Source: Thermodesulfobacteriota bacterium
Lineage (GTDB): Bacteria; Desulfobacterota; QYQD01
Reading direction: 5' to 3'
Length of the DNA: 64,000 bases
Assembly (NCBI GenBank): GCA_031082315.1
Contig: JAVHLC010000011.1
Location: 35,117 to 99,116 of the forward strand
Shown: positions 6,790-49,318 of the stretch, piece by piece
Layout of the letters: each line of letters opens with the position of its first letter
Position numbering within the stretch: the first letter of the stretch is position 1
The notes under the pieces: generated by a model
Seen by the model: the letters and a program-made list of their open reading frames with translations, nothing else
Told to the model about the DNA's origin: nothing
Databases searched by the model: none
Made by a program: the position numbers and the translations under genes

Positions 6790-8594
6790 TCCCTGAGTCC
6801 TCCTTCTCTGACCGCCAGGCTAAGATATTGATCATTTTCTTTCAACATAATACGTTTTTGTACTAATTCATTAAAAAACTTTTGTAAAGACTCCAGCGAG
6901 CAGCCAGGAAATCCCTCTTTTATATCCTTGAGTGATTTTATGGTCGTACAGTAGAGATATACATTGCGGGAGGGACCGTGGAGTCTATGGATTTGAACAC
7001 TACCATCTGATCTTATCTGTCGTATGCTGAGAAACCTGCCCCCATCCCGGTAAGAGAGAAGGGGTTGCGACGGATATTGGTTTCGCAGAAGAAAATAGTC
7101 TTTCCGCCACATTTCCACCTTTTTTGCTACCGGTCTCCATAAGGTATATTGTCGGGATCTATCGCCCCGATGAGCCTGCTGTATTAGTATTAGTCGTGCA
7201 AAGAGTTCCTTTGACAAAAACGATTTATACAGGTGGTGATTGCCTGTCCGTTTAACCCCGAATTCTTTGGCAGTACAAAAGACCGGACTGCCGTAGCCCA
7301 ACCAGAAAGACGCCATTTTTAATGGATAAAAAGGCCATACGAAATCGAGGGCGTCCAGTGTTTCTTTCACTTCAGCCGGTGAGCTGCCAGGAAACATGGT
7401 GATCAGGTTGCCGGATTGAATAATGCCCAGCTCTTCGCAGTGCCTCATGGTCTCTATATTCTGGAGGGCTGTGGTTCCTTTGCCCATTCGTTTTAGCAGA
7501 GAAGAACTTAAGGCCTCGATGCCGATCTGGACCGTTTTCAGCCCGCCTTCGCGCATTAAGGCCAGGGCTTGGGCGGATTGTCCGGCGCGCAGCTCGGCGA
7601 AGATGCCAAGGTCTTTTTCCAATGTGGTGAGGGCGGTAAAAAGCTCCGGCCCCTGATGAGGCGGCAGCGCATTGTCGGTGAAGGCCAGATCAATGGACGG
7701 ATAGCGATCGGTCAGGTCCTTGATCTCCCCTACCATCTGAGGTACAGATTTCTTTCTATAGCTGTGCCATTGGAGGTTAAGGTTACAAAAGCGGCATTTC
7801 CGCCACCAGCAGCCGCGTGAAAACTCTACCGGCAGGACCGGCAGGAATGGAATCCGGGGGGATATATCCTGTAGGAGGTTAAAATAATCCCCATAATCCG
7901 GCGGCGGAAGTGAGCTTAAGGCGTTGATCTCATCATAACTCCCCCCTGATACCATGCCCTGGCTGTTACGGTAAAAGACCCCGGGTCCTGGTTTATCGAC
8001 CTCCCCCTTAAGAAGACGTACAATGGATAAGAGGGGTTTTTCGCCTTCACCGGAGACGACAAAATCTATCTCCGGCAAGCTGGAGAGAATGGCCCGTCCC
8101 ATCTCGCCCGAACAGCTTGAACCGCCGGCTACAATGGTTATCTCTGGAAATCTCGCCTTCAGGGTACGTATGGCGTAGAGTGAAGATGTAAGCTGATTAA
8201 GGCAGATAGAGAAGCCTATTAGGTTGAACTGCCTCCAATCCCTCGACCGTATAAAAGCTTCATGGTGATCGCTGAGTTTAGACTTAAGAGCGGAGAGATC
8301 AAAATGAAGTTTATATTTTTTAGACCTTTTTTGTTTGTTTATTAAGGAATGAATCGATGTATTTTTTTCCGGAAAGAGGAGTGAGGCATAGATAGCCTCG
8401 GTAATCCAGCTATGTTTTGAAATCTCGTGGTAGAGTTCAAAACCGATCTGGGCGGCGACTTCCAGATAAATCGGGTAAGTGGAGATATCGAGGGCATCAT
8501 CCTGCGATGCAAGGTAGGATTTAAGCGCACCGAGTTGTATGGAGGGCCGGTTAAATAGCGGCCAGGGCATGGAAATTAGGGCTATCCGGAACAT
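6786..8594 (-). CDS. B12-binding-domain radical SAM protein (RiPP-maturase-like)
   Basis: N-terminal B12-binding-like region (GFSICLNQL...VAGGSSCSG). Cluster motif is SRGCWWRKCRFCNLN. C-terminal ~90 aa looks like a winged-helix / RRE-type extension. Confidence 0.8.
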   Translation of the reverse strand: MFRIALISMPWPLFNRPSIQLGALKSYLASQDDALDISTYPIYLEVAAQIGFELYHEISKHSWITEAIYASLLFPEKNTSIHSLINKQKRSKKYKLHFDLSALKSKLSDHHEAFIRSRDWRQFNLIGFSICLNQLTSSLYAIRTLKARFPEITIVAGGSSCSGEMGRAILSSLPEIDFVVSGEGEKPLLSIVRLLKGEVDKPGPGVFYRNSQGMVSGGSYDEINALSSLPPPDYGDYFNLLQDISPRIPFLPVLPVEFSRGCWWRKCRFCNLNLQWHSYRKKSVPQMVGEIKDLTDRYPSIDLAFTDNALPPHQGPELFTALTTLEKDLGIFAELRAGQSAQALALMREGGLKTVQIGIEALSSSLLKRMGKGTTALQNIETMRHCEELGIIQSGNLITMFPGSSPAEVKETLDALDFVWPFYPLKMASFWLGYGSPVFCTAKEFGVKRTGNHHLYKSFLSKELFARLILIQQAHRGDRSRQYTLWRPVAKKVEMWRKDYFLLRNQYPSQPLLSYRDGGRFLSIRQIRSDGSVQIHRLHGPSRNVYLYCTTIKSLKDIKEGFPGCSLESLQKFFNELVQKRIMLKENDQYLSLAVREGGLRE

Positions 8595-9130
8595 TTCCTG
8601 TCAGCATGAACATGCATAGCGAGCGCATTCCCCGTTGCTTGCCATCCAGGTCCGACACTGGCGGGCAGCGGGGTTAGCGAGCGAATACGATGCATTTTAC
8701 CTTGCATACGGAGATTCCCCGCAGCTTGCTGCGGGGGGGCTTCAACATGGCTTAACGATAATGAGACCTTCCGGGCGGGGGCCTTTTTGTCCGGCTGTTT
8801 ATAATGCATCCTGTAATCTTCAATGGCCAGCATGAGGCCAAAGGCGATGGCTAAGACCAGAAATATCTTGATGATCCGTGGCCAGGATGGCCTTGTCTTT
8901 TCGATCCAGACAAGGAGTCTAACCAGAAGCCGGGTAAAAATCGCAGCCAGGCCTGAAGACCAGAAAATCTTTATTCCGGTTTCGCACATAGAGCGGCCAA
9001 CGTCTCCGGGGTAATAACGCAGGGCGATGAAAAACCAGCCTAAGGCGCAAACGGCCACAATGATCTTATCCCGTGTAGTCCAGATAGGGTTAAGAGACTC
9101 AGATTTTGTTGCCACTATCCCGTCCTTCAA
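8582..9130 (-). CDS. Small membrane protein; its 3' third is read through repeat R1
   Basis: 3-4 hydrophobic helices in the first ~110 aa. The last ~50 codons (SHVEAPPQQAAGNLRMQGKMHRIRS...) are encoded by the R1 repeat, so the native C-terminus is uncertain. Confidence 0.4.
   Translation of the reverse strand: MKDGIVATKSESLNPIWTTRDKIIVAVCALGWFFIALRYYPGDVGRSMCETGIKIFWSSGLAAIFTRLLVRLLVWIEKTRPSWPRIIKIFLVLAIAFGLMLAIEDYRMHYKQPDKKAPARKVSLSLSHVEAPPQQAAGNLRMQGKMHRIRSLTPLPASVGPGWQATGNALAMHVHADRKCSG
8607..8745 (+). repeat. Repeat family R1, long form (copy a)
   Basis: TGAACATGCATAGCGAGCG...GCATACGGAGATTCCCC-[hairpin]-GCTTCAA. About 90% identical to 41231-41376. Confidence 0.85.
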
Positions 9131-10062: not shown

Positions 10063-11964
10063 TCACGACACCCTCGTGCCTGCCTCTATCTCACCGTCAA
10101 CGGTCAGTACCCGGAGTCCGGAGGCATCCTTGGCAGCCAGTACCATGCCTTCCGACTGGACACCCATCAGCATGGCCGGCTTTAGATTAGCCACGATAAT
10201 AACCTTCTTGCCAATGACCTCTTCCGGTTTATAGAATTCGGCGATACCGGCTACGACTGTACGCTCCCGGTCCGCTAACACCTTTAGTTTTAAAAGTTTT
10301 TTGGACTTCGGAACCGGCTCGGCGGAGATTACTTCCGCCACCCGAAGGTCAGCTTTTTGGAAATCCGGAAAATCTATCATGGCCGTCTCGTTATTCACTT
10401 TAAGATCCCCTTTGGCTGTGTCTTCCGCTATCTTCTTTGTGGTCTCGAGGCGCGGGAAAAGAGGGTCTCCCTTTTTCAGGGTCCGGCCGGGAGAAAATAA
10501 ACCCCAGGTCATGCTGTCTGCATAGGCCGGATGCTCCGTTTCCTGATAGCCCAGGGCCGTCCTCATCTTACCCGCCGTCTCCGGGAGAAACGGTGAAAGC
10601 TGGATAGCAATCACACGGAGCGTTTCCGTAAGGTTATAAAGCACGGTGTGCAGCCGCCCTCTATCTTTTTCATCTTTAGCCAATTCCCAGGGGGCGGTCC
10701 GGACAATATATTTGTTGGCGTGATTAATTACTTCCCATATCTCCGCCAGGGCCTTATGAAAGGCGAACTCTTTTATGTGCCGGCCATAGTGTCCGGAGGC
10801 CTCGAGAGTCCGTTGTTTCAGTATTTCGTCTATCTCTTCGTTGAGTCCCGGTTGCGGAATAACGCCGTTACAGTATTTCTCAAGCATGGTCAGTGCCCGG
10901 CTGAAGAGGTTGCCCAGGTCATTGGCCAGGTCGGAGTTTCGGCGGGCGATGAGGGCCTCTTCACTGAAGGTGGCGTCGAGTCCGAAGACCATTTCCCGCA
11001 GGAGAAAGTAGCGCACCGTATCCACGCCGTAGGTCTCTGATAAATCAAGGGGCCGTATCACGTTCCCCAGGCTCTTGGACATCTTACTTTCATTTATGTT
11101 CCAGTACCCGTGGACATGAAGGCGCTGATAAGGCTGAATCCCGGCGGATTTAAGCATGGTCGGCCAGTAGATGGCATGGGGTTTGAGTATGTCTTTGGCT
11201 ATGATGTGTTCTGCCGCGGGCCAGAACTTCTGAAAATTAGCGCTGTCCGGGTAGCCGAGGCCGGAGATATAGTTTATGAGGGCATCAAACCAGACATAAG
11301 TGACAAACTGGTCATCAAAGGGCAGGGGGATTCCCCATTCCAGGCGTGAGCGCGGCCTGGAGATACAGAGGTCTTCCAGAGGCTCACTTAAAAATGACAG
11401 CGCTTCATTCCGATAGCGCTCCGGCGTGATAAACTCAGGGTGGTTTTTTATATGATCGATCAGCCAGTCCTGATACCGGCTCATACGGAAGAAGTAGTTC
11501 TTTTCCTTGACAAATACCGGCGTCACCTGGTGATCCGGACATTTACCGTCTATCAGCTCCCGTTCCAGATAGAAGCGCTCACACCCCGTACAATAAAGGC
11601 CGCCGTACTCGCCAAAATAGATATCACCTTTCTCATATACCTTATTCAGGATATGCTGAACCGCCCGTATATGGGCCGGGTCTGTGGTACGAATGAACCG
11701 GTCGGTGGCGACATTTAATCTGGGCCAGGTAGAACGGAAGATGCCGCTTATGTGGTCGGCATATTCCTTTGGAGACATCTTACGCCCGGCAGCGGCCTCG
11801 GCCACCTTATCTCCATGTTCATCCGTGCCCGTAAGGAAAAAGGTCTCGTCTCCGGCCAGACGGTGAAAACGTGTGGCCGCGTCAGCAACCAGAGTGGTAT
11901 AGGTATGTCCTATGTGCGGCTCGGCATTCACGTAATAGATGGGCGTGGTTATATAAAAGGTCAT
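10063..11964 (-). CDS. metG: Methionine--tRNA ligase with C-terminal tRNA-binding domain
   Basis: HIGH motif (PHIGHTYT) and KMSKS motif. 633 aa. Confidence 0.95.
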   Translation of the reverse strand: MTFYITTPIYYVNAEPHIGHTYTTLVADAATRFHRLAGDETFFLTGTDEHGDKVAEAAAGRKMSPKEYADHISGIFRSTWPRLNVATDRFIRTTDPAHIRAVQHILNKVYEKGDIYFGEYGGLYCTGCERFYLERELIDGKCPDHQVTPVFVKEKNYFFRMSRYQDWLIDHIKNHPEFITPERYRNEALSFLSEPLEDLCISRPRSRLEWGIPLPFDDQFVTYVWFDALINYISGLGYPDSANFQKFWPAAEHIIAKDILKPHAIYWPTMLKSAGIQPYQRLHVHGYWNINESKMSKSLGNVIRPLDLSETYGVDTVRYFLLREMVFGLDATFSEEALIARRNSDLANDLGNLFSRALTMLEKYCNGVIPQPGLNEEIDEILKQRTLEASGHYGRHIKEFAFHKALAEIWEVINHANKYIVRTAPWELAKDEKDRGRLHTVLYNLTETLRVIAIQLSPFLPETAGKMRTALGYQETEHPAYADSMTWGLFSPGRTLKKGDPLFPRLETTKKIAEDTAKGDLKVNNETAMIDFPDFQKADLRVAEVISAEPVPKSKKLLKLKVLADRERTVVAGIAEFYKPEEVIGKKVIIVANLKPAMLMGVQSEGMVLAAKDASGLRVLTVDGEIEAGTRVS

Positions 11965-27646: not shown

Positions 27647-27778
27647 CCCGAACAAATCAATCCAGCCGGGCTGTGCTCTCGCGGAATAAAATCGTTCCCT
27701 CGCGCGCTGATTCGCGCGTCGGGAACAATCCGCTCGAGCAGACAGCCCAAGGGCCGCAGCTCAGATGGGCCGTTGGCT
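27647..27778 (+). other. attC-type site (long, 132 nt)
   Basis: Bounded by CCCGAAC and GTTGGCT. Arms GGGCTGTGCTCTCGCGGAAT and AATCCGCTCGAGCAGACAGCCC pair. Central hairpin GTTCCCTCGCGCG...CGCGCGTCGGGAAC. CCCGAAC is the exact reverse complement of the cassette start GTTCGGG. Confidence 0.7.
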
Positions 27779-27791
27779 GAGAGGGAAAAAG

Positions 27792-27884
27792 ATGGAACAG
27801 TATATCGGTTTGCTGATTTTCCTTGGACTTCTGGTCAGTTGCACATCCCCCGTGAACAAAAGGCGATCGGAGAAAGCAAGATGA
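27792..27884 (+). CDS. Possible 30-aa mini-lipoprotein ORF
   Basis: MEQYIGLLIFLGLLVSCTSPVNKRRSEKAR, with a lipobox-like LVSC. RBS GAGGG lies 6 nt upstream. ATGA overlap with the next ORF. Confidence 0.3.
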   Translation: MEQYIGLLIFLGLLVSCTSPVNKRRSEKAR

Positions 27885-28204
27885 ACGTACTTCAGATTCG
27901 TTGGCAACGTCTCGTGGACGAACGGGGCCAAACATGTGATCGCTGTGGCGCAACCGAAACAGCGATAGAGGATGGGTTCCAAAAGCTAAGGCGTTCCCTG
28001 AAGGAACTGGACATAGACGTCGTTCTCGAGAAAACAGCTCTCAATCCTTCTACGTTTTCCAAGGATCCGCTCCAGTCAAATCGTATCTGGATTGCCGGAA
28101 AGCCGATCGAGCAGTGGCTCTCGGCCACCACTGGCCAGAGCCGATGTTGCTCCACATGCGGAGATTCGGAATGCAGAACTGTCACGGTTGATGGCAATAC
28201 CTAA
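27881..28204 (+). CDS. DUF2703-like small Cys protein
   Basis: MNVLQIRWQRLVDERGQTCDRCGATE...CCSTCGDSECRT. Start chosen at MNVLQ rather than the longer tracked ORF. Confidence 0.65.
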   Translation: MNVLQIRWQRLVDERGQTCDRCGATETAIEDGFQKLRRSLKELDIDVVLEKTALNPSTFSKDPLQSNRIWIAGKPIEQWLSATTGQSRCCSTCGDSECRTVTVDGNT

Positions 28205-28210
28205 GGACTG

Positions 28211-28744
28211 GCGGGACGTTCATGCAGAACGTGCTTGACGAATTGTGAATAAGCAGGACATCCTCTTGAGGCGGACGGCAGTTACTCTATCTCCCGAACC
28301 CCGGAGCTTCGTCACGTTGTGCTGACTTGCCCGGAGACTGGGCCTGGTATGCCGTTTACTCGCCACGTCCTGTGGCTCGCCCTTCGGGCCAGCAAAGCTG
28401 TTCAAGATCGTTCATCCTGACGATTTTGTCTGTTCGTCGGCTCATAGCTTTGCGCTCCGGGTTACCGCTCCCTACGGTCGCTCTCGCCGTTGGCTCGTGG
28501 TCTCCGCTGCGCTTCGAACCCTTCGACGGTCTCTCACGATTCCGCCCTTGCCTTCGGCTGGTACTTCTGCTAACGTATCACTAACTAGGCAGGGTTCACC
28601 CTGTTAAATTCCCCCCAGGGAACCCTATTTAACAGGGTGAACGTACAGGGGGGACTTACACCCCTTAAGCTCACGCCCATGCCGGGCGTACACAACTGCG
28701 TTCACGCGACCTCGTGACCTCGGCGCGTGACCCACATGTTATTA
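28211..28744 (+). other. attC-type site B, interrupted by an intron-like element
   Basis: Without 28218-28693 it reads GCGGGAC-AACTGC-GTTCACGCG-ACCTCGTGACCTCGG-CGCGTGA-CCCACAT-GTTATTA. Confidence 0.6.
28218..28693 (-). mobile_element. ORF-less group II (class C-like) intron-like RNA, copy B
   Basis: About 90% identical to copy A with the same ends. Lacks one ~23-nt hairpin. Shows at least one compensatory U-A to C-G change in a small stem. Confidence 0.6.
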
Positions 28745-28785
28745 TGCTTCTTGATAGTAAGAATTAAGAGGAGGGGAAATAGTAT

Positions 28786-29217
28786 ATGAATTGTTTTATA
28801 ATTATGCCCATTACAACTCCTGAAGAGCTGTTACCCCTCTACAATAATCCCAATCATTTTAAAAATGTGCTTGACTACCTACTCACACCTACGGTCAATG
28901 AAGCAGGAATGGAACCTATTCCACCTAGTTCTGAGGCTTCAGAAATTATTCATGCAGACATTATCTCAAAATTAATATCTGCTGCAATTGTCCTATGTGA
29001 TATATCAACACTTAATGCAAATGTCTTTTTCGAACTAGGAGTTCGTACCTCACTTAATAAGCCTGTTTGTTTGATTAAAGATGATCGCACAAATTCAATA
29101 CCTTTTGATACTGCTCCCATCCATTGCAAGACATATAGAAGCGGTCTGACAATTATGGACCATGCAGAAGATAAAAAAAAGAAATTAAACGCAAAAGGTA
29201 TTTGGAGTAAGCTATGA
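28786..29217 (+). CDS. Nucleoside 2-deoxyribosyltransferase-like / TIR-like Rossmann protein
   Basis: CFIIMPI...AAIVLCDISTLNANVFFELGVRTSLNKPVCLI pattern. AT-rich cassette. Confidence 0.45.
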   Translation: MNCFIIMPITTPEELLPLYNNPNHFKNVLDYLLTPTVNEAGMEPIPPSSEASEIIHADIISKLISAAIVLCDISTLNANVFFELGVRTSLNKPVCLIKDDRTNSIPFDTAPIHCKTYRSGLTIMDHAEDKKKKLNAKGIWSKL

Positions 29218-29450
29218 AAAAATCAAAACAGGCTTTACCGGGATTTGTGGTTTGTATCAATAACATAGATTATCCGGCATCATTAGAACTCCATAAAATT
29301 TATCGTGTGCTTCCAGATGAAGATGCTGCTGCCGAAGGGGATATTCGAATTATTGATGAAAGTGGAGAGGATTATTTATACCCCTCTTCCTATTTCGTTC
29401 ACATCCAAGTTCCTCAAACGGTTGAAGAGTCATTACTTAGGGCGTCATAA
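29214..29450 (+). CDS. Small conserved hypothetical protein (78 aa)
   Basis: ATGA-coupled to the upstream ORF. IRIIDESGEDYLYPSSYF resembles a recurrent small-protein family of unknown function, from memory. Confidence 0.5.
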   Translation: MKKSKQALPGFVVCINNIDYPASLELHKIYRVLPDEDAAAEGDIRIIDESGEDYLYPSSYFVHIQVPQTVEESLLRAS

Positions 29451-29452
29451 TT

Positions 29453-29531
29453 TAAGAACCCGTGCCGAACATCAGCTTGGAGAAGGATGCTCGTTCCGCT
29501 GCGCTTTGGCCCATAGAAAGGGCCGTTGACC
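29453..29531 (+). other. Degenerate terminal attC-like region of array 1
   Basis: TAAGAAC-CCGTG-CCGAACA left half (its reverse complement matches the cassette start GTTATTA 6/7). The right half is poorly palindromic. Candidate R' is GTTGACC at 29525-29531. Confidence 0.35.
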
Positions 29532-41212: not shown

Positions 41213-41230
41213 GTCTTCCCCTTTCTAAAC

Positions 41231-41376
41231 TGAACATGCATAGCGAGCGCATTCCCCGCTGCTTGCCATCCAGGTCCGACCCTGGCGGGCGGCGGGGTTA
41301 GCGAGCGAATACTATGCTTTTTACCTTACATACGGAGATTCCCTGTCCGCCGCAGGCGAACTGCGGGGAGCTTCAA
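41231..41376 (+). repeat. Repeat family R1, long form (copy c)
   Basis: Same architecture as 8607-8745. The terminal hairpin sequence differs (CCGCAG-GCGAA-CTGCGG). Confidence 0.85.
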
Positions 41377-44644: not shown

Positions 44645-44737
44645 AGGTAACACCGCGTAGCCGGGACATTTACTAAACCCCCGCCATCTGATCGAAATCT
44701 CTTGATTTTCCCCCTTAGCTATGTTTATTTTTTGCCT

Positions 44738-45112
44738 ATGATTCAGTACGAATTGGCCGAGGACATTGGTGCATCAATAAAAGGCATTATTCATAAACTA
44801 CAAATGACCCATGTGGATGAATCCAGGCTGGTTTGTATAAGGAGCAAATACTCTAACAGCAAGAGGGTAATTGCCCGCTGCCACGGTCTTTCCAGAATCA
44901 TGCAATTAGCCCTCAACCAGAGGCCTCATTATGTTATCGAGGTTATTTCTGAAAGGTTTGATAAGCTCAGCAAAGAAGAGCAGATTAAGGTTCTTATCCA
45001 CGAACTCATGCATATTCCTCATTCCTTTGGAGGCGGGTTCAGAGTCCACAAGCCGTATGTGACTCAGAAGAAGGTTGAGAGGATGTACAGAAAGTTTGTA
45101 CGGGTCGGATAA
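44738..45112 (+). CDS. Small putative metallopeptidase (HExxH; COG4900/SprT-like)
   Basis: HELMHIPHSFGGGF motif. Start moved to MIQYEL (ATG) from a TTG. Confidence 0.55.
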   Translation: MIQYELAEDIGASIKGIIHKLQMTHVDESRLVCIRSKYSNSKRVIARCHGLSRIMQLALNQRPHYVIEVISERFDKLSKEEQIKVLIHELMHIPHSFGGGFRVHKPYVTQKKVERMYRKFVRVG

Positions 45113-45113
45113 G

Positions 45114-45174
45114 CTTGCCATGCATACGGAGATTCCCCGTCCGTCCTCCGCCTGCGGCGGACGGGAAGCTTCAA
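45114..45174 (+). repeat. Repeat family R1, 3' part only (copy d)
   Basis: GCATACGGAGATTCCCC-[CCCGTCCG...CGGACGGG hairpin]-AAGCTTCAA. Abuts the stop codon of the metallopeptidase gene. Confidence 0.75.
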
Positions 45175-45256
45175 ATTTTCCACTGTGCCGCCGCCAAATA
45201 ATAAATTGCCATAATTACGTCGAGTCGACATAACATCGATAATTACAATAAAAAGC

Positions 45257-45400
45257 AGACCTCCGGATTTTATGCTATCGTCTTATGTAATTGATATTTA
45301 ATTGCATTTCATTTTATTGTACTGTTTGCCAAATTGTAGTATCATCGCTTTTATCTGCGAGTTTTGATGAAAAAATCGAGTCGATATAATATATAATGTT
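45257..45400 (+). promoter_or_regulatory. Conserved array leader, copy 2
   Basis: See copy 1. Similarity ends at GTT (45398-45400), the first bases of cassette heptamer GTTAAGT. Confidence 0.6.
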
Positions 45401-45426
45401 AAGTTTCTCAAGATAAGAGACCCATT

Positions 45427-45774
45427 ATGGAAGTCATATTGAGTATTATTGGTTCAGCATTATTCTCGTGGCTAATTACCAGTATCTATTTTAGGAAAAG
45501 CCTTAAGCAACAGTCGAAGGAAGCTGAAAAAGAGATTTCGCAGCTTTTAAAGTCTTTTGAGAACATACAAAAAGAAAAAAATGAAAGAGTCTTGTATCAA
45601 CATCGTTTAGAGGAATCTATTCAAGAGTACCGTAAAACTGGCACACCTGTGCGAGTTATAGACACTTATGATAATATGTCCGAAGAAGAGAAAGCCAATC
45701 TGTATGATGCTGTCATGTTAAGAGAGAAGGGCAGACTGGGTAAATCTAATAAATATAGAAATAAAAAAACTTAA
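45427..45774 (+). CDS. Cassette ORF: N-terminal TM helix plus coiled-coil protein
   Basis: 115 aa, AT-rich. Its stop codon lies inside attC R'' ACTTAAC. Confidence 0.5.
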   Translation: MEVILSIIGSALFSWLITSIYFRKSLKQQSKEAEKEISQLLKSFENIQKEKNERVLYQHRLEESIQEYRKTGTPVRVIDTYDNMSEEEKANLYDAVMLREKGRLGKSNKYRNKKT

Positions 45775-45832
45775 CATCCTGCTGCAAGGGATGGCGCAAA
45801 AAACCGCGCCACCCTTGAGCAGAGCGTTAGGC
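45769..45832 (+). other. attC-type site (64 nt)
   Basis: ACTTAAC-ATCCT-GCTGCAAGGG-ATGGCGC-AAAAAAC-CGCGCCA-CCCTTGAGCAGAGC-GTTAGGC. R'' is the exact reverse complement of the cassette start GTTAAGT. Confidence 0.8.
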
Positions 45833-45848
45833 GCGTGAGGAAAAATTT

Positions 45849-46232
45849 ATGAACACAAAAAGTACTAAACGCACAGCCCGTGCTTACGTTATCGAGGCCA
45901 CTGTCGCGATACTGCTTTGTTACTTCTTACTCGGAGGTTCTGATTGGAGTCCTGCGCTCTGGGCGGTGTTCACTGTCCTTGCCATTTGGATCGTGGTAAT
46001 GAATGTGCGCCGCGATGCTGGCGTAGAGAGTGCCGTAGCATACGATCGCTGGAAGTTGCAGGTAGCATTACTAATGGTTCTCGGCGTTCTCGGTGCGTCT
46101 ATATGGAGGAGCTCATCATGGCTTTTTATATTGAGCTTGGTCTTGGGAGCAATTTGGGTCAGCGATTTGCGTGCCCACCAGGACACATATAAACGAAAGG
46201 CTGTTCAAGAGGGAAATGATGTTGCCCCTTGA
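45849..46232 (+). CDS. Cassette ORF: 4-TM membrane protein
   Basis: 127 aa with four hydrophobic segments. Starts 17 nt after R'. Confidence 0.5.
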   Translation: MNTKSTKRTARAYVIEATVAILLCYFLLGGSDWSPALWAVFTVLAIWIVVMNVRRDAGVESAVAYDRWKLQVALLMVLGVLGASIWRSSSWLFILSLVLGAIWVSDLRAHQDTYKRKAVQEGNDVAP

Positions 46233-46254
46233 CATTAGACAAAATGAAAAATTG

Positions 46255-46313
46255 GCCTAACCATTCATTCCAACCGCCCGCTTAACAGCGGCGGCGGAAT
46301 TCAACCGTTATGC
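46255..46313 (+). other. attC-type site (59 nt)
   Basis: GCCTAAC-CATTC-ATTCCAA-CCGCCCGC-TTAACA-GCGGCGG-CGGAATTCAACC-GTTATGC. R'' is the exact reverse complement of the cassette start GTTAGGC. Confidence 0.8.
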
Positions 46314-46339
46314 GGAAGCGATGAACGGGATGTTTCGCT

Positions 46340-46924
46340 ATGACTATTAAAACCAAAGCGGAAATTGTTTTCGAGGAATTCTGCAACTCAAACAGCATTG
46401 GATGGGAGAAGATAAAAGAGGGCGAAAGCCGCGCTCCAGATTACGAAATCTATCTCGGTGGCGAGCTGGTATTCGTAGAAATCAAGCAAATTGATAAAGA
46501 CGAAAACTTTGGCATCGAGTCTTGCTCTAGAACGGTGGGGTCACATATAAGACGAAGAATACAGAGTGCCAGGAAGCAGGTACAGGCAGGTTCTAACGAA
46601 GGTGCTCCGTCCGTGTTGTTGGTGTACAACAATCTCGATCCGTGGCAAATGTTTGGTACAGAACAACATGATTTTATCGACGCGATGTACGGAGAGAGAA
46701 CCGTGGTGTTAGATACAGACACAAATGCGATCACAGACTCCTTTCAAGGAGGGAATCGATCCTTAGAGGAAAACAAGAATACGTCTTTTAGCGCGGTGGG
46801 ACTGCTATATAAAAAGGAAGATTGTGCCGGAGTTCATATTTACGAAAATGTTTTCGCTAAGAATCCGCTGGAGTTTTCAAAGGTCCCGAATTGCATTGAA
46901 GTCACTCGAATCGAGATAGAGTGA
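46340..46924 (+). CDS. Cassette ORF: predicted PD-(D/E)xK nuclease-fold protein
   Basis: APDYEIYLGGELVFVEIKQI fits the PD...(D/E)xK pattern. 194 aa. Confidence 0.5.
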   Translation: MTIKTKAEIVFEEFCNSNSIGWEKIKEGESRAPDYEIYLGGELVFVEIKQIDKDENFGIESCSRTVGSHIRRRIQSARKQVQAGSNEGAPSVLLVYNNLDPWQMFGTEQHDFIDAMYGERTVVLDTDTNAITDSFQGGNRSLEENKNTSFSAVGLLYKKEDCAGVHIYENVFAKNPLEFSKVPNCIEVTRIEIE

Positions 46925-46931
46925 AAATTCC

Positions 46932-46960
46932 GCATAACAAGTTGTCCGAGCCGACGCCGC
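46932..46960 (+). other. Truncated attC (left half only)
   Basis: GCATAAC-AAGTT-GTCCGAG-CCGACGCCGC, then unrelated sequence. R'' is the exact reverse complement of the cassette start GTTATGC. Confidence 0.65.
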
Positions 46961-47234
46961 AAAAACCAGCCCCGTAGGGTGGGCTTTGCCCACCGAAACC
47001 CCTGGACACCGGGGTTCACCGGTGTGACGACTTTTGCAAGAGTCTCGGAGGAATAAACCTCGGGTCTTTGTCCGCAGTCCGCCACGACATCATCCAAGAA
47101 ATGGCCCGGGTCATCGAGATTCTAGTGTCGCTTCCAGGCCTATCCCAGGCATGCTCCCCTTAGACAAAAAATAGCATGTTAACATTATGCAGGTATTATT
47201 TGACAAATAGTTTAACTTAATGTGAATTAACGGC

Positions 47235-47366
47235 ATGACTAAGCCAAGAGAGATCTATGAAAAAATCATGCCGTATTTCGATTCTCTGGAGGCGATTATT
47301 ATTACCGGCATGCGGAGAACCGGAAAGACCACGCTTCTCCATCTGGTCTTTGACCAGATAAAGGCC
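47235..47366 (+). pseudogene. 5' stub of an AAA-ATPase (DUF4143-type) gene
   Basis: MTKPREIYEKIMPYFDSLEAIIITGMRRTGKTTLLHLVFDQIK (Walker A). The rest of the tracked ORF is antisense to oppF-like coding sequence. Confidence 0.55.
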
Positions 47367-48332
47367 TTACCGGATATGGCAGGAGAGCCACTGCCTCTGG
47401 CCGGCTTCGTGCCAGAGGGGTTTATCCGTCGTACAGATGTCCTTTCGGTACGGACAGCGGGGGTGAAAGGGACAGCCTGATGGAATATTTAAGGGGCTGG
47501 GAGGGTCTCCCTCTAAAACTATACGCTTTTGACGGCGGGTAGGGTCAGGAGAAGGGGCGGCCGCCAAGAGGGCCTCGGTATAGGGGTGGTGGGGTACCTG
47601 TCCGAGGAGATTTTTGTCTATTATTTCCACGATCTTTCCGAGATACATGACGGCGATGCGGGTGCTCAGATAATGTACGACCTGAAGGTCATGGGCGATA
47701 AAGAGATAGGTAAGGTTGAATTTGTTCTTGAGGTCGAGAAGGAGATTGATTACCTGGGCCTGTATCGAGACGTCCAGGGAAGAGACCGCTTCGTCCGCCA
47801 CGATGAATTCCGGATTCAGGGCTAAGGCGCGGGCGATACCGATCCTCTGCCTTTGTCCGCCGCTGAATTCATGCGGATAACGATATATCTGATCTTCACC
47901 AATACCTACTTCCCTAAGTATATGGGTAACTTTTTCGACCAGTTCTGTCCTGCCGGGGCAGAGCTTATGGATTATGAACGGTTCGGCCACAATATCGAAT
48001 ATGTTTCGGCGTGGATTAAGCGACGAGTAGGGATCCTGGAATATGATCTGCATATCCCTGCGCAAATTCCGCATCTGTCTATGGGATAGCGATGTGATAT
48101 CCCGGCCTTTATAAAAGACCTGGCCTGAGGCAGGTTCCTCCAGTTTCAGTATGAGGCGGCCTAATGTGGATTTGCCGCAGCCGCTTTCACCCACCAACCC
48201 TAATATCTCGCCCGGCATGATGGTAAGGTTAACGCCGGCCACGGCCTGTAAGACGTGGTCTTTCCCGCCCCAGAAGCTGCTCCGCACCTGATAATGTTTA
48301 AATAGGTCTTTGACTTCAACCACTGGGTTCAT
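47367..48332 (-). CDS. Oligopeptide/dipeptide-type ABC transporter ATP-binding protein (OppF/DppF-like)
   Basis: GESGCGKST Walker A, LSGGQRQR signature, C-terminal oligopeptide-type extension. ATGA overlap with the upstream gene. Confidence 0.85.
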
Positions 48333-49318
48333 GGCCGGTCTGCCTTTAAAAAGCACCGCACGAAGTGTCCTTTTTCTACCTCAAGAAGTTGTGGTTCGGT
48401 GCTGAGACATTCTTTATGCGCTTCTTTACAGCGGTTCTGAAAGGTGCAGCCTCCGGGCAGGGCGGAAAGCGAGGGGACCGTGCCGGGTATGGGCGTAAGG
48501 CGGCGTAAGGGTTCTTTATTCAATGAAATGTGCGGCAGGGAGGCCAGGAGCCCCCTGGTATAGGGATGGAGCGGCCGGGAAAAGAGGTTATCGACACCGG
48601 CCTCTTCAACTATGCGTCCGGCGTACATGACGATAACCCTTTGGCCTACCTCGGCCACCACGCCGAGATTGTGGGTAATCAAAAGGAGGGCCATGCCGGT
48701 TTTCTTTTTGATCTCGGCGAGCAGATCCAGTATCTGGGCCTGGATGGTGACGTCCAGGGCCGTGGTCGGTTCATCGGCAATTATGAGGTCCGGCCGGCAG
48801 GCCAGGGCCATGGCGATCATAACCCTTTGTCTTAGTCCGCCGCTCAGTTGGTGGGGGTAATGCCTTATCCGTTCGGCAGGGGAGGGGACGCCGACCAGGC
48901 CGAGGAGTTCAACGGCTTTTTGTTCGGCCTGATGACGCGTCATCTTTTCATGTACGAGTATGGTCTCTGTGATCTGGTCGCCTATGGTGAAGACCGGATT
49001 GAGCGCGGTCATCGGCTCCTGAAAGACCATGGAAATCCGCCGGCCCCGGAGGCGGCGCAGGTCTTTCTCTTCCAGTTTCATAATATCCCGGCCGTCGAAC
49101 AGGATTGAACCGGAGACTATCCTGCCGGGAGGGTCCGGGATGAGCCTCAATATGGACAGGGCCGTGACGCTCTTACCACAGCCGGACTCACCTACGACGC
49201 AGACAGTTTCGCCCTTTTCCACAGTGAAGCTTACGCCATCAACCGCCTTTAAGGTGCCTTCTTCGGTGTAAAAATATGTCTTTAAGTCCTGGACGGAAAG
49301 TAGTGGCTGGGGTGTCAT
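48329..49318 (-). CDS. Oligopeptide/dipeptide-type ABC transporter ATP-binding protein (OppD/DppD-like)
   Basis: GESGCGKSV Walker A and LSGGLRQR signature. Confidence 0.85.

Follow-up and report, generated by a model that had tools for sequence, protein, structure and literature searches.

A 2.7-kb accessory island separates a Zn-ribbon protein gene from oppF on a Thermodesulfobacteriota chromosome, within the stretch analysed here (64,000 nucleotides (nt), or 64 kb, of contig JAVHLC010000011.1; hereafter the window). Direct reading of positions 44800-47600 places in this island, at 45191-46967 on the plus strand, an AT-rich leader followed by three co-oriented cassettes, which together we call Array 2. 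Genes for pilT-like ATPases, the Zn-ribbon protein and a metallopeptidase are its upstream neighbours, and opp transporter genes lie downstream (Pfam). The parts of the array are as follows, the scores of the attC sites being those under covariance model R1, which is introduced below and which both complete sites match over its full length.

45191-45397, plus strand: AT-rich conserved leader, sharing 90-92% identity with the leaders of a second array of the window (Array 1; leader at 24578-24725) and of the related contigs L001-L005
45398-45404, plus strand: GTTAAGT crossover box joining the leader to cassette 1 (R' type, G/TT, the slash marking the crossover)
45399-45826, plus strand: cassette 1, 37% G+C, with an open reading frame (ORF1) at 45427-45774 encoding 115 amino acids, an N-terminal hydrophobic segment and no Pfam family
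45769-45832, plus strand: attC1, 64 nt, R'' ACTTAAC at 45769-45775 and R' GTTAGGC at 45826-45832; 31 bits, E 6e-6
45827-46307, plus strand: cassette 2, 49% G+C, with ORF2 at 45849-46232 encoding 127 amino acids, hydrophobic, no Pfam family
46255-46313, plus strand: attC2, 59 nt, R'' GCCTAAC at 46255-46261 and R' GTTATGC at 46307-46313; 30.6 bits, E 8e-6
46308-46967, plus strand: cassette 3, truncated at its 3' end, 45% G+C, with ORF3 at 46340-46924 encoding 194 amino acids, no Pfam family
46932-46967, plus strand: 5' half of attC3, with R'' GCATAAC (46932-46938), spacer AAGTT, L'' GTCCGAGCCGACGCCGC and loop AAAAACC; the L'/R' half is missing

ORFs 1, 2 and 3 start 22, 16 and 26 nt after the preceding R' box, and the TAA stop codon of ORF1 falls within the ACTTAAC box. 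An initial annotation of the window, made from the sequence alone, had quoted the motifs of Array 2 with their coordinates and a stop codon inside an R'' box; every motif is present where quoted, and the stop is that of ORF1. In the source record ORF1 and ORF3 carry consecutive locus tags (RDU59_10730 and RDU59_10735), and the ORF of cassette 2 (45849-46232), a candidate gene, is apparently unannotated there.

Cassette boundaries and attC sites

The heptamer that opens each cassette was claimed to be the reverse complement of the box that closes the same cassette, and it is so at seven of seven positions in all three cassettes. With AAC and GTT held fixed, such a match has a chance probability of 1/256 per cassette and of about 6e-8 for three; in the window as a whole, 3.8% of GTTNNNN sites have their reverse complement 300-800 nt downstream. 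Tandem duplication, which the initial annotation had named as another possible origin of the matches, was ruled out, there being no long direct repeats among the cassettes that would indicate it. The proposed bounds of the sites, RYYYAAC...GTTRRRY, are those of attC1, the only site that a strict regular expression of this form picks up, but not of the attC2 and attC3 boxes (GTTATGC and GCATAAC), which lie one base off the strict consensus; a one-base departure is also present in the known attC sites of the blaVIM-2 and arr-3 cassettes.

Model R1 was built from ten attC sites only, all belonging to class 1 integrons in plasmid records, and was given the textbook structure. The integrons were fetched from plasmids with an IntI1 query, and the arr-3 and dfrA27 attC sites were excluded because they had been misaligned by MAFFT. 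Searched unfiltered against both strands of the whole window (128 kb), the model returned attC1 and attC2 as its two best hits, each with its exact ends and on the plus strand. Hits 3-5 all lie in Array 1 (25409-25486, 26916-26971 and 27722-27778), and nothing else has an E value below 1. The score of attC1 is strongly dependent on the strand (31 bits on the plus strand versus 10.5 bits on the minus strand). Rfam gave nothing relevant within Array 2, at either gathering or E-value thresholds. A relaxed scan for AAC...GTT hairpins was dropped as an attC finder, as it was swamped by repetitive extragenic palindromes (REPs) and coding hairpins.

Folded as DNA, the bottom strand of attC1 reaches −18.5 kcal/mol (z −4.9) and leaves a T and a C extrahelical on the 3' arm, 6 bp apart, and that of attC2 (z −3.4) leaves a G and a T extrahelical on the same arm. 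Both folds thus show the extrahelical bases for which a check had been suggested, two in number and 5-6 bp apart, and in both the spacer between the R and L boxes is unpaired. The same pattern is displayed by the known attC sites of aadA, aadB, blaVIM-2 and aac(6')-Ib.

The third site was described as breaking off, and it stops at 46967/46968, directly after AAAAACC; its missing arm was not found anywhere in the window. The L'' that remains agrees at 16 of 17 positions with its counterpart in the aadB attC known from class 1 integrons. A copy of cassette 3 with 89% protein identity is present in L021 (GCA_041643215.1), where it opens with the same GTTATGC and 5' untranslated region (UTR) and closes with the same GCATAAC-AAGTT-GTCCGAGCCGACG, its R'' and L'' being identical to those of cassette 3. 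The attC of this copy is complete (87 nt, L021 6657-6745) and scores 27.9 bits under R1. Judged by this intact homologue, the third site of Array 2 is a true half attC.

Cassette 1 likewise has a homologue, at a different locus of L023 (GCA_964435205.1), with an 87% identical ORF. It opens with the same GTTAAGT and 5' UTR and ends with ACTTAAC, as cassette 1 does, while the attC body (33.7 bits) and the upstream region differ. The L023 cassette (6925-7820) stands behind a different non-coding region, which ends in ...GAATAACTT/GTTAAGT, and no integrase was found in the 7 kb upstream of it; the oppF/Zn-ribbon site of L023 is empty. The protein of ORF3 matches RDU59_10735 from a Thermodesulfobacteriota metagenome-assembled genome (MAG) at 100% identity, and its family is borne on a cassette in L024 too and is a fixed gene of a cobalamin operon in Desulfobaccales. 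L024 has attC sites at 7872, 10594 and 11968. From these comparisons, the cassettes are mobile units that are bounded at G/TT and recur in different contexts, and L023 and L024 suggest that this clade may commonly carry small arrays without an integrase among its core genes. A blastn search of the 2.7-kb island against plasmid and phage collections gave no match.

An explanation that dispenses with integrons is that the palindromes are terminators or REPs following unrelated genes and that the heptamers agree by coincidence. Hairpins after genes are indeed common, and this genome is rich in REP-like ones. The hairpins of Array 2, however, have no T-tracts, and a terminator scan finds none on the plus strand; a model of clinical attC sites would have had to pick exactly these two sites, with their ends and strand, out of 128 kb, the 7/7 complementarity would have had to occur three times, and cassettes with the same G/TT ends are found in other genomes. 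The model hits and the recurrence of the cassettes in L021 and L023 effectively refute this explanation, to which we assign a negligible probability.

PADLOC gave no convincing match for the three cassettes of Array 2, and ORF3 had no match in the PDB by sequence profile. The AlphaFold model of ORF3 (predicted local distance difference test score 82.6) has weak matches to the PD-(D/E)xK nuclease fold, none with E <= 0.001.

The leader and the cassettes behind it

The leader contains the direct repeats TCGAGTCGACATAACAT (45220-45236) and TCGAGTCGATATAATAT (45376-45392), which have the form TCGAGTCGA(Y)ATAA(Y), and a 35-nt core, TTTTATTGTACTGTTTGCCAAATTGTAGTATCATC. Its end reads ...TCGAGTCGATATAATATATAAT/GTTAAGT, that is, ...ATATAAT/GTT. 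The leader core has 29% G+C, and the length that recurs before the GTT is about 150-200 nt. Just before the GTT lie two hexamers resembling those of σ70 promoters, TTGATG (45364-45369) and TATAAT (45385-45390).

A search with the leader pattern led to a GTDB contig (L001, MAG SpSt-1152), and a search with a 24-mer of the leader led to four metagenome contigs. Leader copies occupy three chromosomal sites: that of Array 1, that of Array 2 together with the orthologous loci L001, L002, L003 and L005, and an unrelated one in L004. An alignment of six leader junctions gives 91% identity over the last 100 nt before the GTT and 55% over the first 100 nt after it, the random level being 53%, and the leader is conserved far better than the neutral intergenic DNA beside it. 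At these six junctions the same GTT has independently received at least five different cassettes. Because it is conserved up to the crossover GTT and variable past it, the leader, as far as an alignment can tell, behaves as an attI-type insertion platform. The third copy (L004 11300-12200) is preceded by an AAA_14/DUF4143 ATPase gene and by two small ORFs, which by reading of the sequence are a candidate BrnT/BrnA toxin-antitoxin pair.

The leader could instead be ordinary AT-rich intergenic DNA whose GTT was used by chance, in an off-target insertion of the attG type. Integrases can insert cassettes at genomic GTT outside att sites, according to a preprint (bioRxiv 10.1101/2022.09.11.507474), and Array 2 resembles the insertions treated there in that its cassettes adjoin non-integron DNA at a GTT and no integrase is close by; intI, the defining context of attI, does not adjoin the leader. 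Nevertheless, the target in Array 2 differs from a one-off site of that description in being a repeated, conserved module that was used many times: a sequence of about 200 nt heads arrays at two sites of the window and recurs at a third elsewhere, the same GTT received at least five cassettes, and the leader is better conserved than the adjacent neutral intergenic DNA. We therefore regard a chance insertion as improbable.

The initial annotation had considered that in related genomes these ORFs might be fixed, syntenic genes; in the relatives, the leader is followed by other cassettes or the site is empty. L001, L002, L003 and L005 represent the same chromosomal site as Array 2, with the pilT-like, Zn-ribbon and metallopeptidase genes, at 94-97% nucleotide identity. 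The first cassettes at these loci differ from that of Array 2 and from each other, save that L005 is a duplicate of L001, and after ...ATATAAT the orthologous loci read GTTGTAT, GTTAGGC and GTTAGAC. At least four different first cassettes are thus found at one integrase-less site among near-identical strains, and their standing behind one leader between flanks that are 94-97% identical implies repeated recent events at this site. In the more distant L018 (about 77% identity), the site is empty: oppF and the Zn-ribbon gene are only 60 nt apart, and neither the metallopeptidase gene nor the leader, the array or the ATPase gene is present. The gene just upstream of the leader, at 44702-45112 in the accessory island, belongs to PF18894 ('putative phage metallopeptidase'); it is absent in L018 and is kept with the leader in L001-L003 and L005.

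Between that gene and the leader lies one further element.

45113-45190, plus strand: REP-like element, a G+C-rich hairpin CATGCATACGGAGATTCCCCGTCCG...CGGACGGGAAGCTTCAA

Related copies are present at 8605-8679, 24465-24550 and 41229-41303 in the window and in L004. The element is absent from the orthologous L001-L003 and, for this reason, is placed outside the leader proper. Its presence bears on the possibility that leader and array were copied as one module, for example by a REP-associated route or by homologous recombination between REPs, with no attI function involved. REP-like elements abut the leader both in the window and in L004, and a Y1_Tnp (IS200-like) gene is present at 19049-20056. 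On the other hand, the leaders of L001-L003 have no REP beside them, and copying of a module would produce neither a break in homology that is base-precise at the GTT nor different cassettes at one site. We consider this origin unlikely. The Y1_Tnp gene, which also encodes a DnaA-type helix-turn-helix, could be a REP-associated transposase. Two families of REP-like hairpins can be told apart in the window, GAACATGCATAGCGAGCG...CCCCG-hairpin, which abuts leaders, and CCCGTAGGGTGGGC...GCCCACC, which bounds the distal end of Array 2.

Integrase search and the state of the array

The window was said to contain no tyrosine recombinase, and our searches agree. Pfam detects no PF00589 domain in the 50 ORFs that cover the window, among which housekeeping genes are seen (metG, purL, glnS, opp, catalase), and a tblastn search of the window and of L001-L005 with IntI1, a probe verified to be 100% identical to plasmid IntI1, gave nothing better than E 2.7. 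Array 2 is accordingly free of integrase genes over 45 kb upstream and 17 kb downstream, and no integrase was found in up to 12 kb upstream of the leader-carrying loci.

Clusters of attC sites lacking an integron-integrase are termed CALINs (Cury et al. 2016, PMC4889954; IntegronFinder 2.0, PMC9024848) and number 2961 in RefSeq, compared to 2760 complete integrons (PMC9024848). Array 2 has, under R1, at least two attC sites on the same strand and less than 4 kb apart, with no integrase nearby, and is for this reason a CALIN by the published definition (PMC4889954), with an attI-like head. It lacks the adjoining intI of a complete integron, and with two and a half attC sites and an empty site in L018 it falls outside sedentary integrons (more than 19 attC sites or species-wide presence). 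The initial proposal of a CALIN-type array, or of an integron whose integrase is elsewhere, is thus supported by the R1 hits, the folds and the relatives. The attI sites of CALINs were not analysed in PMC4889954 and PMC9024848, since for most integrons the attI sequence is unknown.

The distal end of Array 2, which had been described as eroded, comprises beyond the half attC the following features.

46968-47046, plus strand: REP-like hairpins AGCCCCGTAGGGTGGGC...GCCCACC and CTGGACACCGGGGTTCACCGGTGTGACGAC, the distal boundary of the variable region
47235-47366, plus strand: N-terminal stub of an AAA_14/DUF4143 ATPase gene, in which Pfam AAA_14 covers residues 19-41 only
47367-48356, minus strand: oppF

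Comparison with L019, a relative at 95% identity, bears the description out: half attC, hairpins and the AAA_14 stub adjoining oppF are all confirmed. Homology to L019 begins at 46968, exactly at the attC3 break. The ATPase gene is intact in L019 (389 amino acids); about 45 of its codons are kept in the window, followed by a deletion of about 1.2 kb that reaches the 3' end of oppF, the segment 1336-2535 of L019 being missing from the window. The first of the two hairpin types occurs twice in L019, where it flanks the intact ATPase gene, and the second occurs in L004. That the stub is the same gene as the AAA_14 ATPase of L004 was rejected (36% identity over 25 amino acids).

Such erosion is what the main competing explanation would lead one to expect, namely that the integrase has been lost genome-wide, that the cassettes are now fixed genes, and that the differences between strains are older or arose by homologous exchange. 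Degradation of integrons has been proposed as the origin of CALINs (PMC9024848, PMC4889954); the last attC of Array 2 is truncated, the neighbouring ATPase gene has its 1.2-kb deletion, and the integrase-free span extends over the 45 kb and 17 kb given above. However, four different first cassettes stand behind the same integrase-less leader between flanks of 94-97% identity, attC1 and attC2 are structurally intact, with scores as high as those of clinical attC sites, and the leader is conserved at three sites. A fossil array is, on balance, an unlikely account, though one that deserves to be taken seriously.

Array 1 (24500-29500) is the second leader-headed cassette array of the window and lies about 20 kb away from Array 2. 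Its leader (24578-24725) is followed by GTTCGGC and by these features.

24752-25471: ORF, trypsin-like, with a weak LmuA-type PADLOC match
25504-26385: ORF
26421-26920, minus strand: group II intron copy of about 500 nt
26988-27644: ORF
27773-28204: ORF, DUF2703
28211-28700, minus strand: group II intron copy of about 500 nt
28786-29217: ORF with a weak TIR-like match

The two intron copies match Rfam RF02001 (30.5 and 35.1 bits), are 89% identical to each other and contain no reverse-transcriptase ORF or intron-encoded protein. Each lies between a cassette ORF and its attC body, opposite to cassette transcription, and their 5' ends are 84-87% identical to an ltrA-carrying group II intron in a class 1 integron attC (L016). 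Group IIC-attC introns reside on the bottom strand of attC, opposite to cassette transcription (PMC3001079), and the geometry of Array 1 agrees with this; by their sequence, the copies look like ORF-less group IIC-attC introns. Each of the two arrays of the window finishes with a 5' half attC that breaks off close to the hairpin apex (46932-46967 and approximately 29466-29496), and the half site of Array 1, GCCGAACATCAGCTTGGAGAAGGATGCTCG, matches an arm of the L001 attC at 19 of 22 positions. The two arrays may have been terminated in the same way, for instance by deletions that began at the hairpin.

Cassette exchange without a local integrase

In view of the attC sites, the cassette boundaries and the turnover at this site, 45191-46967 is a genuine integron-type cassette array that has no local integrase and is probably served from elsewhere. 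An integron integrase encoded elsewhere in the genome would fold and recombine the attC bottom strand of a circular cassette. Recombination of this strand with the double-stranded leader at G/TT would insert each new cassette at the array's head, and cassettes would leave by recombination between two attC sites or between leader and attC. The promoterless cassettes would be transcribed from a σ70-type promoter inside the leader. A deletion that ran up to the REP hairpin presumably removed the 3' half of the attC of cassette 3; without this half, the cassette could not be excised alone and would be effectively fixed.

Several points weigh against this reading. The action of an integrase in trans has to be assumed, the IntI-binding architecture of the leader is putative, and exchange between strains could have proceeded by homologous recombination, for which the leader and the REP/ATPase flank would serve as arms. 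As for the promoter, it amounts to no more than a match to the consensus, with a spacer that measures 15 nt in Array 2 and 16 nt in the other leader copies; the scan reports another weak site and finds promoter-like sites no more often than in shuffled sequences. A simple attI model leaves L004 unexplained, where the junction reads ...ATATAAT/CGGTGAAC, without GTT, and where a gene pair bearing an attC (11781-11843, 28 bits) lies upstream of the leader. R1 was purpose-built, was calibrated in shortened form and differs from the attC model of IntegronFinder. Finally, the source is a MAG, and the junctions at 46967/46968 and at the ATPase deletion could be assembly artefacts.

Array 2 shares with other CALINs its co-oriented attC sites spaced by single promoterless ORFs, the absence of intI within 4 kb (and, here, within 64 kb), its small size, its chromosomal location and its cassette genes of unknown function. 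It differs from them in having at its head a non-coding leader, conserved as far as the crossover GTT, that recurs at other sites, and in that sister strains show cassette turnover at its integrase-less site. Parallels can also be drawn to the class 1 platform (intI, attI and the promoter Pc), where cassettes are likewise inserted at a fixed G/TT that ends a conserved non-coding segment, promoter-like hexamers face the cassettes and the attC architecture is the same, down to the L'' that attC3 shares with aadB. Unlike that platform, the leader has no integrase gene beside it, either in the window or at the six leader-carrying loci, has no similarity to attI1 and displays no obvious L/R inverted core. 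With sedentary chromosomal integrons such as the Vibrio superintegron, Array 2 has in common its chromosomal position, cassettes of unknown function and hints of an attC family particular to its lineage (attC1, the L001 attC and the half site that ends Array 1), but it comprises three cassettes instead of tens to hundreds, has no adjacent integrase, and its site is empty in L018.

Taken alone, Array 2 is an ordinary example of a known element; what makes it worth following up is the repeated attI-like leader and the visible turnover of cassettes. The activity of CALINs and the form of their insertion sites are largely unknown because attI sequences are known only for a few classes. The locus is a clean natural experiment in this respect, as it combines an integrase-less site, a recognizable leader, at least four first cassettes, an empty relative and a second array 20 kb away. 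It could serve to define an environmental attI and as a test bed for the activity of integrases in trans on CALINs, and, with both arrays ending in a half attC, it could show how arrays become fixed. More tentatively, and as a possibility that falls somewhat short of probable, we suggest a dispersed integron, in which a leader comprising attI and a promoter has been copied to at least three sites among core genes, two of them within 64 kb, each copy gives rise to a mini-array, and one distant integrase loads and unloads them all. If this is true, these CALINs would be working satellites and not wreckage, and they would provide natural material for the definition of environmental attI sites.

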